Shown one piece after another: positions 5,753 through 25,285 of a DNA stretch of 30,620 nt. This DNA is from Candidatus Peregrinibacteria bacterium (GTDB lineage Bacteria; Patescibacteriota; Gracilibacteria; UM-FILTER-43-11): positions 1-30,620 of the forward strand of contig JAZDOH010000030.1 in assembly GCA_043798815.1 (NCBI GenBank), given 5' to 3'. The notes under the pieces are model-generated. The model made no database searches, was not told the DNA's origin, and worked only from the letters and a program-made list of their open reading frames with translations. Positions within the stretch are counted from its first letter, which is position 1, and each line of letters begins with the position of its first letter. A program made the translations under genes and the position numbers.

Positions 5753-6384
5753 TGCCCAAACTCAAAATCACCCCTTCGATCCTCGGCGTTGATTACGGTC
5801 GGATGAACGAGCACCTAAAAGAACTCGAATCTTTTTCCGACTGGTTCCATGTGGACGTGATGGACGGTAATTTTGTGAACAATCTCACGGTTGGGGCTCC
5901 GGTAGTCGCGCGGATCAAAACCAAAGTGCCGCTGGACTGCCACCTGATGATCAACAATCCCGGCAAATACCTCGAAGACTTCGCGAAAGCGGGCGCCTAC
6001 TCCATCACCATCCAGGCAGAGGCGAGCGGGAAGCATTTGAGCAATGACATCGACAAAATCCACGCTCTCGGCTGCCGGGCGGCCGTGGCGCTGAATCCCA
6101 ATACTCCCATCGACAAAATTTCCCACGTTCTGCAAAAACTCGACATGGTGCTCGTCATGTCCGTTTTCCCCGGCTTCGGCGGCCAGGAATTTATTACGGA
6201 CGTCCTTACAAAAGTCCGTTGGCTCCGGGAGCACTTCCCCGATCTCGACATCCAAGTCGACGGCGGCATTAATGACAAAACTGCACCATTGGCCATAAAA
6301 GCCGGAGCTAATGTGCTCGTGGCTGGGTCCTATATATTAAAAAATAAAAATCCTAAAGCAGCTGCGGAACGGCTTCGTGGGTAG
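5752..6384 (+). CDS. rpe: Ribulose-phosphate 3-epimerase
   Basis: Motifs PSIL, HVDVMDGNFV, DCHLM, VMSVFPGFGGQ, QVDGGIN and LVAGS. It overlaps rpiB through TAATG. Confidence 0.97.
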   Translation: MPKLKITPSILGVDYGRMNEHLKELESFSDWFHVDVMDGNFVNNLTVGAPVVARIKTKVPLDCHLMINNPGKYLEDFAKAGAYSITIQAEASGKHLSNDIDKIHALGCRAAVALNPNTPIDKISHVLQKLDMVLVMSVFPGFGGQEFITDVLTKVRWLREHFPDLDIQVDGGINDKTAPLAIKAGANVLVAGSYILKNKNPKAAAERLRG

Positions 6385-10605: not shown

Positions 10606-10740
10606 AAAATTCGTTTGAATACAAAAGACAAACGGCAAGTTAACATAAGTGTGGCGATTGGCGCAAGTTTTTTTGGTGAGCCTTCGGCTTGGCGCCTGCC
10701 CGTGCCGGCCATTGGTCTTCCTCTTTGCGGTGCGTTTTCA

Positions 10741-10941
10741 GCACTTTTTGAAAATGTCCCCCTTTTTAGCAGGTTTTGGTACAAAAAGGGACACTTTTTT
10801 TTGACATTGCTAGCAATCTATTTTTTTTAATGAATTGCGCACAGAAACCAGTTATATAAAATACATGTTTTCCTTTTGGGGCTATCGCCCCAACTCTAAA
10901 AAAGAATCCGATTTTGTTTTTTATTTATTTTTAGAGGGGAA
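10741..10941 (+). repeat. Intergenic repeat family, copy 1 (left inverted repeat of cassette 1)
   Basis: Colinear with the reverse complement of 13203-13415. Shared blocks are 10783-10796 vs 13361-13374 (14/14), 10862-10876 vs 13277-13291 (15/15), 10894-10921 vs 13230-13257 (27/28) and 10932-10941 vs 13203-13212 (10/10). Confidence 0.93.
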
Positions 10942-10987
10942 ATAAGGTGTCTTCTCCGCTGCGCTCCGAAAACGGTTTATTTATAAA

Positions 10988-11017
10988 TTGAATAAAAAAG
11001 AGTAATGCCTATATAAT
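10988..11017 (+). promoter_or_regulatory. Putative sigma70 promoter of the cargo gene
   Basis: TTGAAT at 10988-10993, 18 nt spacer, TATAAT at 11012-11017. Confidence 0.45.
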
Positions 11018-11043
11018 ACAAACAGTTTTTAAAAAATGAAATT

Positions 11044-13164
11044 ATGAACAGACAGCCTAAACCGGATTCAAAGAAATATACAGATTTGATCTCTGAAATT
11101 CAAAAAGGTTATATCAAAGTCCCTAAATTTCAGAGAAATTTTGTTTGGAGTCTGGATAAAACAGCAAAACTATTAGACAGTATCCTAAAGGGCTATCCTA
11201 TCGGAACATTTATTTTATGGGAAACCAACGAAAGGTTAAACGACATTAAGAATATTGGTAACCTTGAGCTTCCAGCAGTTCCAGATGACACCAAAGTCCA
11301 GTATGTTTTAGATGGTCAACAGCGCATTACTTCTCTTTATGCAGCTTTTAAGGGCGCACAAATTCAAAAGGATGGTGAAAAGAAAATTACAGATTATGCG
11401 AATATTTTTGTGGATCTAGAAGGAGATGTCGACAATAATGATGAGCAGATTGTTGTTTCGGAGAAACCCGAAGGTATTTTTATCTCACTTCATGAAATAC
11501 TTAATTTCAGTGATCATCTACTCGAAATAAAAGAAAAATATTCCAATGAACAATTTACTAAAATACACCTATACTCTCAAGCATTTTCAACATACGATTT
11601 CTCAACAATTATTCTTCGTAAAGAAGATATAGATTCTGCTATTGAAGTTTTTACAAGAATTAATACAGGAGGACAAACACTAACATTGTTTGAAATCATG
11701 TCTGCAAAAACTTACGATGAAGAACAAGATTTTGATATGGAGGATGAATTCCAAAAGTTGATGGAAGAATTGACGGAACGAAAATATAACAGCATCTCCA
11801 GTTCCGTTATTTTAAGTATTTTGTCCCTTGTTTTAAGCAAAAACAAAGAATGTAAAAGAAAAACGATTTTACAACTTGAAAAGCAAAAAATTATTGAAGC
11901 CTGGAATGATGTAATTTCCGCATTAAAGGAAAGTATAGATTATTTTCGTTTCGTCTACCGTATTCCTGTTTCCGCTATTTTGCCCTATGATTCGCTTTTA
12001 GTACCTTTTGCTTATTTTTTCTACTACCAAAAAGAGAGACCAAAAGGCGAGCAAATAAAATATTTAGAAGAATTTTTTTGGAGAGTTTCTCTTTCTTCGC
12101 GATATTCTAGTTCAACCGAATCAAAATTAGCACAGGACATAAAACGAATTGATGAAATTTTGAAAAATAATCGTCCAAACTATGATGATGTTAAGGTATT
12201 TTTAAACTCCCCTAAGGATCTGATAGAAACTAACTTTAGTGCAGGAAGCAGCTATTGTAAGGCTATTTTATGTTTATTAGCATATCACGAACCAAAAGAT
12301 TTACGGGACAATGGAAGAGTCATTTTAGACAATTCGTGGCTAAAGATTGCGAACAGCAAAAATTTTCATCATTTTTTTCCTAAGGCATATTTGAAGAAGC
12401 TTAATATTGGAAATGGAAATAGCTTAGTTAATATTACTTTAGTAGGGGCGGACTTAAATAAACGAAAAATTAAAGCAAAAGCTCCGTCAATCTACATCCA
12501 GGAATTCTTAGATGAAAACGACGAATTGCCTACAGCATTAAAATCGCACTTGATAAACGGATTAGAAGAATTTGGAATTCAGAGCGATGATTATCTGGTT
12601 TTCTTAGAAAAACGAGCTGACATAATGTTCAAGGAGCTTAAAGATCGAATCGAACTTAAGCGCAAGGAAGACAGGAAGGAGGATGAATTAAGAGAAATAA
12701 TCCTAAGTCTTGAGAATGAGATATTAGAAAAAAAATCAACATTGAGATTTGATTTACGAGAAGGAAATATTAACAAGAAATTAGAGTACGTTATTGCCAA
12801 AACTATTTCCGCTTTCTTGAATAGCGAGGGTGGGACTCTCATCATCGGAGTTGATGATAACGGGAATATATTAGGGCTTGAAAAAGACATTCAGACTCTT
12901 GAAAAGCAAAATTTAGATGGGTTTTCATTGCACTTAAGACAGGTAGTAAAGAAATATTTGGGAGAAAATTACGAAAACTATTTAAAGATTTCTTTCCCAA
13001 AAATTGAAAATAAGGAAATATGCGTTATCAAAATATCAAAAAGCGGAAAACCAGTTTTTGTAAATATTGAAGGTGACAAAGAATTTTTTGTTCGCAACGG
13101 CGGATCTTCTATCCCTAAAAATAGACAAGAACAAAGCGAATACGAAAAACTACATTGGAATTAA
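11044..13164 (+). CDS. DUF262 (GmrSD/ParB-like) + HNH-like (DUF1524-type) + Schlafen/AlbA_2 fusion protein; candidate defence nuclease
   Basis: DUF262 motifs VPKFQRNFVW, VLDGQQRITSL and FTRINTGG. HNH-like NFHHFFPK...NSLVNITL...LN. AlbA_2 motifs ENEILEKKS, ISAFLNSEGGTLIIGVDDNG and FFVRNG. Confidence 0.85.
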   Translation: MNRQPKPDSKKYTDLISEIQKGYIKVPKFQRNFVWSLDKTAKLLDSILKGYPIGTFILWETNERLNDIKNIGNLELPAVPDDTKVQYVLDGQQRITSLYAAFKGAQIQKDGEKKITDYANIFVDLEGDVDNNDEQIVVSEKPEGIFISLHEILNFSDHLLEIKEKYSNEQFTKIHLYSQAFSTYDFSTIILRKEDIDSAIEVFTRINTGGQTLTLFEIMSAKTYDEEQDFDMEDEFQKLMEELTERKYNSISSSVILSILSLVLSKNKECKRKTILQLEKQKIIEAWNDVISALKESIDYFRFVYRIPVSAILPYDSLLVPFAYFFYYQKERPKGEQIKYLEEFFWRVSLSSRYSSSTESKLAQDIKRIDEILKNNRPNYDDVKVFLNSPKDLIETNFSAGSSYCKAILCLLAYHEPKDLRDNGRVILDNSWLKIANSKNFHHFFPKAYLKKLNIGNGNSLVNITLVGADLNKRKIKAKAPSIYIQEFLDENDELPTALKSHLINGLEEFGIQSDDYLVFLEKRADIMFKELKDRIELKRKEDRKEDELREIILSLENEILEKKSTLRFDLREGNINKKLEYVIAKTISAFLNSEGGTLIIGVDDNGNILGLEKDIQTLEKQNLDGFSLHLRQVVKKYLGENYENYLKISFPKIENKEICVIKISKSGKPVFVNIEGDKEFFVRNGGSSIPKNRQEQSEYEKLHWN

Positions 13165-13202
13165 AATAAGGTGTTTTAGGCATCGAGTATTCACCCCTTT
13201 GA

Positions 13203-13452
13203 TTCCCCTCTACCCTTCGTCAAAAACGGAAAAACAAAATCGGATTCTTTCTTAGAGCGATCCGCCTAAGCGGATTAAAGGAAAACATGTACTTCATATA
13301 ACTGATCCAGTGTGCGCAGTTTTGTTTTTTGCGCGTAGTTTTCCTGCGAACGTCAAATTGAAGTGTCCCTTTTTTGCAGGAAATGACATCTAAAAAGGAC
13401 ATTTTTGAAAAGTGCCCTTGAGGTGCCCCGGGGGAGTGTTCTATTTTTGGCG
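13203..13452 (-). repeat. Intergenic repeat family, copy 2 (right inverted repeat of cassette 1)
   Basis: Inverted match to copy 1. Direct match to copy 5 (13351-13380 vs 25220-25249, 29/30) and to copy 3 (13404-13452 vs 24348-24396, 44/49). Confidence 0.93.
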
Positions 13453-24295: not shown

Positions 24296-24396
24296 GAAAG
24301 GGTTCCTTTTTTGCCCCGCCTTGGCGTGGTCATCCAAAGGTAACACTTTTGAAAAGTGCCCTTGATGTGCCACGTGGGAAAGTTCTATTTTTGGCG
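24296..24396 (-). repeat. Intergenic repeat family, copy 3 (GC hairpin inserted in the dyad spacer)
   Basis: 24329-24356 vs 25254-25281 (27/28) and 24348-24396 vs 13404-13452 (44/49). The spacer carries CCCGCCTTGGCGTGG at 24315-24329. Confidence 0.88.
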
Positions 24397-24462
24397 GATT
24401 CGATTTGGAACAAGCAGGTTGTACAATTCAGCAATTTGTATTCCCCCTTGTGAGCCGTTTTT

Positions 24463-24525
24463 CACTCTTTTTAAAAATGTACCCTTTAGATACCAAAATA
24501 GGACAAAAAGGGACACTTTTTTTGG
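24463..24525 (+). repeat. Intergenic repeat family, copy 4 (left inverted repeat of cassette 2)
   Basis: CACTCTTTTTAAAAATGTACCCTTTAG...CAAAAAGGGACACTTTTTTT parallels 10742-10801, with the 20-nt block CAAAAAGGGACACTTTTTTT identical. Confidence 0.85.
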
Positions 24526-24694
24526 TTCTCTAAGTAGGACAAGCCGCTGAGGCGGTTTGACAGCCCACATGATTTACTTTTTAATAAATTACGTATAGAA
24601 ACGAGTTGGGCGAAATTTCTAAAAAATTGTATGGCATTTTGCAAAAATAAATAATACAATGAATGTCGTAAAATAATTTTATTTTTAAAATCAT

Positions 24695-25129
24695 ATGGAA
24701 ACATCAAACAATTCATTATCAAATCAACAAGTATCTCGTCCTTGGCAAGGTACAATGCTTGGCGTTCTTAATATTATTAGCTTGATACTTCTCGGAATAA
24801 CTTTAGTGTTTTTTATTATTATGATGGTTGGTGGAGGTGCCATGTTTTCTGAGATGGTACAAGGAAGTGGCTTACCAATTGCTAGCATGTTTGGCGCTAT
24901 GGGAGCTCTTTTGCTTGTACCATTAATATTAATTTTTACATTGGGTATTTTTATCACAAGGGGGATTTTTAAGGGTCAAAAATGGGCTATTATTGTTACA
25001 ATGATTTTCACCGTATTAGCATTGCTGTATTCATTATTTGATGTAGTTATTGTGTCTATAATAATCAATGGTCTATTTTTGTATGCTGAAGTTATTTGTT
25101 TGAAAAATCCTTTTTACAATAAAAAATAA
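24695..25129 (+). CDS. Hypothetical integral membrane protein (about 4 TM helices, AT-rich)
   Basis: A 144-aa, strongly hydrophobic ORF with A/T-rich codons. Confidence 0.75.
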   Translation: METSNNSLSNQQVSRPWQGTMLGVLNIISLILLGITLVFFIIMMVGGGAMFSEMVQGSGLPIASMFGAMGALLLVPLILIFTLGIFITRGIFKGQKWAIIVTMIFTVLALLYSLFDVVIVSIIINGLFLYAEVICLKNPFYNKK

Positions 25130-25184
25130 AATCCTTGAATAAGTACATTTTTTAGGAACATCGCCTAACTATTCTGTTCTATAT

Positions 25185-25285
25185 GCAGTTTTGTTCTTTT
25201 GGCTTGGGTTTCCTGTGAGCGTCAAATTGAAGTGTCCATTTTTTGCAGGTTTAGTCATCCAAAGGGAACACTTTTGAAAAGGGCC
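25185..25285 (-). repeat. Intergenic repeat family, copy 5 (right inverted repeat of cassette 2)
   Basis: Colinear direct match to 13316-13415. Confidence 0.92.

Follow-up and report, generated by a model that had tools for sequence, protein, structure and literature searches.

The window analysed here is a 30,620-nucleotide (nt) stretch of DNA from a Candidatus Peregrinibacteria bacterium (assembly GCA_043798815.1, contig JAZDOH010000030.1), and on its plus strand it carries a complete gene for a protein of 706 amino acids (aa), the subject of this study (Table 1). The source genome is small and resembles those of the candidate phyla radiation (CPR), with 0.92 Mb in 114 contigs and 85% completeness; no public sequencing run is listed as containing the locus. 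For its RpoB, a Candidatus Peribacteria MAG gives the best near-full-length match at 62%, a weak indication of kinship. The gene has a G+C content of 0.31–0.33 and forms a trough of 32% between flanks of ∼0.5, in a genome that averages 0.478. It is the single gene of its cassette, which is neighboured by the remnant of a recombinase gene and by dprA. The original prediction, made from the letters of the DNA, had read the protein as a GmrSD-like enzyme (DUF262 plus HNH) with a C-terminal Schlafen/AlbA_2 domain that may couple the sensing or cutting of modified phage DNA to RNA cleavage. All motifs quoted for it are present in the open reading frame (ORF) at the expected places, far beyond chance, and the three-part architecture of DUF262 domain, His-Me/HNH nuclease and C-terminal Schlafen/AlbA_2 domain is supported by Pfam, by the BrxU profile and by fold matches. 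As a whole explanation we favour, with reasonable though not high confidence, an anti-phage protein that acts as one polypeptide and belongs to the DUF262-Schlafen class (pSlfn7-type), in which a GmrSD/BrxU-like chassis would gate an RNase.

Table 1 Features of the locus and of a second cassette in the window (positions are those of the window; residues are those of the 706-aa protein)
Feature	Position	Strand	Basis and remarks
Complete ORF, 706 aa (GmrSD/BrxU-like chassis plus Schlafen domain)	11044..13164	+	Uninterrupted frame, Pfam, AlphaFold2 (AF2) model
BrxU-like GmrSD chassis, residues 4-538	11053..12657	+	PADLOC, BrxU profile, fold; also found as stand-alone proteins of ~540 aa
DUF262/GmrSD_N ParB-like NTPase domain	11080..11709	+	Pfam, motifs, ParB/Noc folds
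FQRNFVW, residues 29-35	11128-11148	+	Motif of the DUF262 part
KLLDS	11167-11181	+	BrxU-type motif of the DUF262 part
DGQQR, residues 90-94	11311-11325	+	Motif of the DUF262 part
FTRINTGG, residues 203-210	11650-11673	+	Motif of the DUF262 part
His-Me finger (HNH/DUF1524-like) nuclease region	12355..12549	+	HHFFP, N463, N472, H502; BrxU alignment, invariance
HHFFP, residues 442-446, then N463, N472	12367-12381	+	Nuclease motif
Flexible linker, residues 539-545	12658..12678	+	Joins chassis to Schlafen domain; pLDDT <50 in AF2 model
Single-lobe Schlafen/AlbA_2 domain, residues 546-706	12679..13161	+	Pfam, fold, invariant catalytic residues
ENEILEKK (E557-x4-E562-x-K564), residues 557-564	12712-12735	+	Schlafen motif
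AFLNSEGGTLIIGVDDNG, residues 590-607	12811-12864	+	Schlafen domain; contains GVDD with Asp605
Promoter-like site TTGAAT-18-TATAAT, 27 nt before the ATG	10988..11017	+	Consensus match; TATATAAT box kept in other copies; putative promoter
11-nt direct repeat AAATAAGGTGT	10940..10950 and 13164-13174	+	Second copy overlaps the stop codon; brackets promoter and ORF
GTTATAT, R'-type core (GTTRRRY), 5' cassette boundary	10851..10857	+	Homology with other copies starts here
ATATAAC, R''-type core (RYYYAAC), 3' cassette boundary	13296..13302	+	Comparison with other copies
Cassette-internal 5' arm of inverted repeat	10858..10921	.	Pairs with 13230-13295; homologous to the 5' flank of other copies
Cassette-internal 3' arm of inverted repeat	13230..13295	.	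Pairs with 10858-10921
Host-type L arm (3' half of the genome's long palindromic site)	10735..10850	+	Dispersed repeat; hairpin 10751-10767 / 10783-10799
Host-type R arm (5' half of the site)	13303..13420	-	Dispersed repeat; matching 3' half missing before dprA
Remnant of a divergent Xer-like tyrosine recombinase, 204 aa	10024..10638	-	Pfam Phage_integrase, 3.6e-33
Second cassette: R-arm fragment	24336-24364
Second cassette: L arm	24459-24523
Second cassette: AT-rich 144-aa ORF	24695-25129		Membrane-protein character in the original prediction; no Pfam match
Second cassette: R arm	25185-25285

The N-terminal ∼540 residues match BrxU, a type IV restriction enzyme of the GmrSD family. Pfam assigns residues 13–222 to GmrSD_N (PF03235, E 2.3e-31), and within PADLOC the profile PDC-M55C covers residues 4–532 (E 7.7e-64), followed by HEC-05 at 1e-36, which is BrxU itself (10.1101/2024.01.29.577857). 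PDC-M55 is a multi-gene candidate. Our protein matches its component C, but no other gene lies in the cassette, and the partners A and B are not among the neighbours. A profile built from 108 relatives recovers BrxU (7P9K) at E 2.9e-38 and, more weakly, SspE; a second stretch of that profile aligns H-F-F-P-K..N..N of the family to H-I-Y-P-K..N..N of BrxU (domain E 0.025). The AlphaFold2 model (pLDDT 92.6, pTM 0.77) falls below a pLDDT of 50 solely in the linker. Its residues 5–540 superimpose on BrxU 7P9K/7P9M with VIA Z 18.3–18.8 (Foldseek E 9e-15), reproducing the overall order of DUF262 domain, helical linker and nuclease, and the DUF262 domain also matches ParB/Noc folds at Z 5–6.

Conservation of motifs was counted in 125 Schlafen-fused homologues and, separately, in 108 mostly unfused relatives. 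All 125 fused proteins keep F29-Q30-R31, L43, S46, DGQQR, H442, H443, N463 and N472, while D45 is kept in 123 and K42 in 117 of them; among the 108 relatives the nucleotide motif (RLFDS in BrxU, KLLDS here), DGQQR, H442-H443, N463 and N472 are conserved at 90% or more. Since the profile aligns the family to DHIYP..N..N of BrxU, residues 5–540 adopt the BrxU fold, and weak matches to GmrSD_C/DUF1524 (PF07510) are seen in relatives of the protein, we assign the nuclease provisionally to the HNH group. Residues 4–538 thus probably amount to a whole type IV restriction chassis of the BrxU-like GmrSD kind, with a putative HNH nuclease predicted to be active. Resemblance to BrxU extends to the RLFDS-like motif together with DGQQR, to the helical linker and to a putative C-terminal His-Me nuclease aligned to DHIYP; unlike BrxU, to which it is only ∼17% identical, the protein has HH in place of DH, carries an additional domain of 160 residues and is not embedded in a BREX system.

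This additional domain is identified by Pfam as SLFN_AlbA_2 (PF04326, residues 557–691, E 4.3e-18), and a sequence search finds the catalytic C-lobe of SLFN5, SLFN8, SLFN11 and SLFN12 at ∼2e-4. Structure prediction, which had been proposed as a check, bears out a Schlafen fold: residues 545–706 of the model match the AlbA_2 domain of DIP2311 at Z 13.2 and the tRNase of SAMD9 at Z 12.8; lower scores, Z 8–9.5, are reached by the C-lobes of SLFN14, SLFN11, SLFN13, SLFN5 and SLFN12. The acidic E-x4-E-x-K motif is intact; E557, E562, K564 and D605 occur in 125 of 125 fused homologues, including relatives that are only 39–47% identical within the Schlafen domain. The catalytic motif of prokaryotic Schlafens is defined as Ex4(E/D)xK (PMC13056530). 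By homology the C-terminal domain is a Schlafen lobe predicted to hold, with E-x4-E-x-K and the Asp, the residues that are catalytic in tRNA-cleaving Schlafens, and we regard activity of this RNase as fairly probable. The same fold and catalytic motif are found in RorSlfn5, in human SLFN11/13/14 and in SAMD9. Unlike in RorSlfn5 and the mammalian Schlafens, the domain lies at the C-terminus and not at the N-terminus, has one lobe in contrast to the two of the mammalian proteins, and its partner is itself a predicted nuclease. RorSlfn5, in turn, combines the Schlafen domain with an Ig-like sensor.

The fusion is not new as such. Perez Taboada et al. (Nat Microbiol 2026, PMC13056530; preprint PMC12330615) listed 5,930 Schlafens of prokaryotes under 55 architectures, and 1.8% of these proteins are fusions to DUF262, so that the novelty the original prediction had considered for the architecture does not hold. 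The member studied there, EcoSlfn7 (DUF262-Slfn) of E. coli UC4224, reduced plating of T7 ∼540-fold, its strongest phenotype, and blocked other phages too (PMC13056530). The mechanism was resolved solely for another architecture, that of RorSlfn5, a phage-activated tRNase with the same motif (PMC13056530); for the DUF262-Schlafen class one defence phenotype and no mechanism are on record. Our protein joins DUF262 and Slfn in one polypeptide, and both Pfam domains are present in all 120 listed homologues, as expected of pSlfn7. It is likened to EcoSlfn7 by architecture, not by sequence: a single gene for DUF262 and a prokaryotic Schlafen with Ex4(E/D)xK. DNA similar to that of EcoSlfn7 was sought by distant blastn in 5,426 E. 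coli genomes and gave no match, and a plasmid tblastn with the Schlafen part returned no enterobacterial copy.

In their account of Slfn7, Perez Taboada et al. make no mention of HNH, GmrSD, restriction or a nuclease in the "sensor" (PMC13056530). The so-called sensor of the DUF262-Schlafen fusion is probably a complete restriction-enzyme chassis consisting of NTPase, helical linker and His-Me nuclease, in which the motifs of NTPase and nuclease vary no more than that of the RNase. A role in defence, as originally proposed, is graded likely, and we hold it with high confidence, given the PADLOC matches to PDC-M55C and HEC-05/BrxU and a phage-tested member of the same architecture class.

The wider family points to a modular design. 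At E ≤0.001, 14,289 proteins of a library clustered at 50% identity match the query, and most of the best matches are proteins of ∼540 aa that cover residues 4–536 only, that is, the chassis without Schlafen; unfused chassis with 48–52% identity are found on plasmids of Rhodobacterales. Full-length fused relatives occur at 57%, 48% and ∼29% identity. A quick maximum-likelihood tree built on the chassis puts the fused proteins at three separate, well-supported positions, hence the Schlafen domain was gained or lost at least three times. In relatives the same C-terminal position is occupied, according to Pfam, by HEPN_Swt1 + DUF5655 + DUF4268 or by DUF4268 + DUF4357. This pattern argues for a general design of restriction chassis plus RNase, in which the C-terminal slot would have been filled repeatedly with RNase or nuclease effectors (Schlafen at least three times, HEPN).

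Individual proteins illustrate the range of additions. Among four chassis relatives (P0262, P0222, P0248, P0133) are combinations of an N-terminal EVE with a C-terminal Schlafen domain (905 aa), of HEPN_Swt1 with DUF5655 (912 aa), of HEPN_Swt1, DUF5655 and DUF4268 (955 aa) and of DUF4268 with DUF4357 (812 aa), and several further relatives of 780–800 aa have C-terminal extensions without a Pfam match. The same Schlafen subtype (43–46% identity) is also found away from the chassis, joined to a bacterial PH domain in a 325-aa protein of a Saccharibacteria metagenome-assembled genome (MAG; L076:3509-4483) and to an unrelated, unannotated N-terminus of ∼640 residues in a 796-aa protein of a Promethearchaeota (Asgard) MAG (L079:185-2572).

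The gene had been taken for cargo of an AT-rich cassette. This is borne out and can be refined to an integron-type gene cassette by conserved flanks and by copies that are bounded by attC sites elsewhere. Homology of the window with other cassettes begins at 10851 and includes 10913–11034, and eight loci (L016, L020, L021, L022, L023, L025, L028 and L033) share ∼200 nt upstream of the gene, starting at GTTATAC and holding the TATATAAT box. Downstream, L020, L021, L022 and L033 have ∼240–270 nt in common, ending in an attC-like palindrome (TATAAC ... GTTRRRY); L023 and L028 share the first ∼65 nt only, similarity in L025 is confined to weaker stretches, and L016 offered no downstream flank for comparison. 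In the array of L033, which has six attC-like sites, the GmrSD-Schlafen gene forms the sixth cassette. These fold as attCs, with pairing of R''/R' and of L''/L' and with compensatory changes in 18 of 32 pairs, which includes the site of the homologous cassette. At L033 and L096 a divergent recombinase on the minus strand is followed by six cassettes on the plus strand, and in L096 the recombinase beside the array is an intact Xer-like tyrosine recombinase of 269 aa without the additional domain of IntI. The cassettes of L033:1-6400 and L096 (CAYYKJ010000009.1) include genes for DUF4365-like, unknown, GNAT and NUDIX proteins, with GmrSD-Schlafen in the last place, and an Eco57I/MmeI-type restriction-modification gene follows the L033 array on the opposite strand.

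The 57.8-kb contig of L033 encodes aIF2-gamma (607 bits, above cut-off), a prenyltransferase of the GGGP type and an archaeal RecJ, and we therefore consider it genuinely archaeal. In total, full-length homologues of 79–87% identity fall into more than 120 clusters at 90% identity. Copies with 71–87% identity are present in Peregrini-, Parcu- and Gracilibacteria, in many Bacteroidota, in Ignavibacteria, Cloacimonadota and Gammaproteobacteria and also in MAGs labelled as Aenigmat-, Pace- and Woesearchaeota, and partial copies in Roizman- and Uhrbacteria. Judged by these comparisons, the gene travels as an integron-type cassette with a putative promoter of its own, and close copies exist in many bacterial phyla and on at least one checked archaeal contig. 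With ∼80% protein identity between CPR bacteria, members of the Bacteroidota and at least one archaeon whose contig was verified, it is a clear case of a probable immune gene in circulation, on cassettes that Xer-like recombinases would serve. The survey of Perez Taboada et al. drew on complete RefSeq genomes, so its coverage of lineages known from MAGs only, most CPR and DPANN among them, was probably not good. To the known class this adds a restriction chassis that is probably complete, a fusion that recurs within the family, and a spread across domains of life on integron-like cassettes of the Xer type.

Two copies deserve separate mention. Psychroflexus salis CGMCC 1.12925, a cultured member of the Bacteroidota, carries a full-length copy of 75% identity (L029, NZ_BMGL01000008.1:151404-161512), which makes tests in a native host possible; this copy seems to stand alone, and no repeated attC lies within 10 kb of it. 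In a MAG of the Gammaproteobacteria a 54-nt direct repeat, 98% identical between its two copies, flanks the gene (L019:3870-3923 and 6138-6191), a boundary structure that differs from the GTTATAC/attC form of the cassette.

Within the window the cassette is enclosed by two host-type arms that are inverted copies of each other. Sixteen copies of these arms on nine contigs of the genome were extracted and aligned, and in 8 of them the cargo-side end reads GTTAGGC, GTTGGGC, GTTATAT or GTTATGT (GTTRRRY). L and R copies pair around other AT-rich cargo in the same genome, and at C87:23749-24032 an R and an L arm abut, forming one palindromic site of ∼300 nt between two cassettes (folding z-score −2.6). 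To the left of the window's cassette lies the 3' half of a site and to its right the 5' half, while a complete site is absent. The adjacent recombinase is decayed: alignment to the intact L096 enzyme indicates loss of the N-terminal 98 residues, the first catalytic Arg is replaced by Lys and the His of HxxR by Gln, and the Lys hairpin is deleted. Because of the half sites and this decayed neighbour the cassette is considered stranded and is probably fixed in place. An empty site or an orthologous recombinase was sought in 20 relatives, which yielded only Xer paralogues of 38–44% identity.

A reading of the 180-nt inverted repeat as the ends of an invertible segment or of a transposon with terminal inverted repeats was rejected, since the repeat is dispersed in the genome. 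It is also ruled out by the GTTRRRY ends of half of the aligned arms, by the cassette-specific part that is common to attC-bounded copies, and by a Peregrinibacteria copy without such a repeat (L003). The AAATAAGGTGT repeat lies inside the inverted flanks of the cassette and recurs, as such or in variants, at the same positions in L020-L033, conserved across hosts. The pair looks like a target duplication produced as the gene inserted in the loop of a palindromic element that predates it, a possible clue to how cassettes originate.

Among known systems, integron cassettes with defence genes (Darracq et al., 10.1101/2024.07.02.601686; Kieffer et al., 10.1101/2024.07.02.601719) are close in form, being single genes with their own promoter, GTTRRRY/RYYYAAC cores and a folded attC, and archaeal integrons likewise have arrays beside a divergent tyrosine recombinase, an arrangement common to Bacteria and Archaea (Ghaly et al. 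2022, PMC9668308). Unlike in integrons, the recombinases next to the cassettes are of the Xer-like type without the additional domain of IntI, the palindromic sites of the window genome measure ∼300 nt, and the cassette in the window is solitary with half sites; at ∼2.5 kb the GmrSD-Schlafen cassette also exceeds its four neighbours in one array, which measure ∼0.7–0.75 kb. The rAID-1 clusters of gut Bacteroidales (Ross et al., 10.1101/471110) are similar in their low-GC arrays, XerD-family recombinase and integron-like intergenic repeats, but there the cargo is immunity to type VI secretion and the recombinase is co-directional, whereas here a phage-defence gene stands beside a divergent recombinase.

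As to mechanism, the GmrSD chassis would engage incoming phage DNA under nucleotide control and would be able to cut it. This engagement, or an accompanying change of oligomeric state, may free an otherwise silent Schlafen RNase, and the freed RNase would cut tRNA and stop translation; the resulting growth arrest or abortive infection would add a second defence layer. Such coupling of restriction to tRNA cleavage is plausible. Three analogies underlie the gating step. BrxU reportedly switches from dimer to monomer in a nucleotide-dependent manner, a finding ascribed to Picton et al. 2021. In RorSlfn5, SLFN11 and SAMD9 a fused sensor activates the RNase, through a phage tail chaperone, single-stranded DNA and double-stranded nucleic acid, respectively, and the latter two serve here as the other analogies. 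In addition, BrxU is an intertwined homodimer whose dimerisation is essential for defence (10.1101/2024.01.29.577857). In the widest form of the proposal, which we offer tentatively and think rather unlikely to hold in every part, a type IV enzyme would act as a switch, with engagement of phage DNA or a block by an anti-restriction protein licensing tRNA cleavage; one polypeptide would deliver restriction first and abortive infection as a fail-safe, and the dual-nuclease gene would be passed between Bacteria and DPANN Archaea on Xer-type, non-IntI platforms.

Several observations weigh against this explanation. The gating by the chassis is purely inferred, and we see the chances for it as evenly balanced. 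The DNA of T7 is not known to be hypermodified; since T7 is the best target of EcoSlfn7, this argues against a strictly modification-dependent trigger. A base modification as the DNA cue, the original proposal, is accordingly lowered to a possibility that we doubt more than we credit, and an EVE reader of modified bases in a distant fused relative is the only hint toward it. A complex prediction for two copies of residues 546–706 scored 0.00, a value that weighs neither way on oligomerisation. In the matter of the platform, no recombinase reached the integron-integrase cut-off of TIGR02249 (265 bits) in the window genome or in five cassette-bearing genomes: the remnant scores 113.8 bits over the whole protein, and the alignments skip model positions ∼181–236, the IntI-specific region. 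The recombinases beside the cassettes are Xer-like, and the term integron holds by architecture, not by integrase family. For the chassis, PF07510 stayed below significance on the 706-aa protein, also when residues 225–560 were searched, and the residue before the catalytic His is His (HH), in contrast to DH in BrxU and EH in HEC-06.

The last two points lend themselves to a reading with the Schlafen RNase as sole effector, in which the DUF262/GmrSD part senses DNA or nucleotides and no longer cuts. This is the model implied by Perez Taboada et al., who treat fused domains as sensors (PMC13056530). The exchange of DH for HH and the missing Pfam assignment would fit a dead nuclease, but in that case the site should have drifted, while H442, H443, N463 and N472 are invariant in the fused proteins and conserved to at least 90% in the relatives counted above. 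An HH pair is, moreover, present in active HNH enzymes such as colicin DNases. We judge the sole-effector reading improbable, and still less probable the reading that AlbA_2 is a non-catalytic nucleic-acid-binding module which targets or regulates a conventional type IV enzyme while no RNA is cleaved. The top structural matches of the domain do include the AlbA_2 of DIP2311 and the "DNA-binding domain" of SAMD9 with DNA, and many AlbA_2 proteins of bacteria bear annotations such as regulator or "ATP-binding" protein. Yet the SAMD9 domain has now been solved as a tRNase (9O0D), E-x4-E-x-K and the Asp do not vary even where the domain is down to 39–47% identity, and the HEPN RNase at the same position in relatives suggests a slot for an RNase effector.

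A function outside immunity, as a selfish or stabilising toxin cassette of an integron-like platform or as a functionless passenger at this locus, appears very improbable to us. Self-promoted cassettes of chromosomal integrons are often addiction modules (Darracq et al.), and the local recombination platform is decayed; against this, the frame is intact, the protein is under strong constraint (mean identity of 76–87% per domain among 119 close homologues), there is no antitoxin partner within the cassette, and a class member has a defence phenotype. The explanation with a complete restriction chassis and a Schlafen RNase in one anti-phage protein is therefore the one that we prefer.

Beyond the GmrSD-Schlafen cassette, the arms of the window genome mark further cargo. 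With ∼300 nt their R + L sites are unusually long for attC sites. Single-gene cargos bracketed by arms lie at C87:22502-24032, C112:80-741 and C79:3430-4450, and single arms occur on C52, C58, C80, C97 and C99. The bracketed cargos encode proteins of 314 aa (weak SprT-like match), 255 aa (putative cyclase domain) and 140 aa (no match). In the window itself, directly after the rpoB-rpoC region, 24336–25285 holds another solitary cassette with arms of this family, in which an L and an R copy pair around the AT-rich cargo at 24459–25285 (Table 1).

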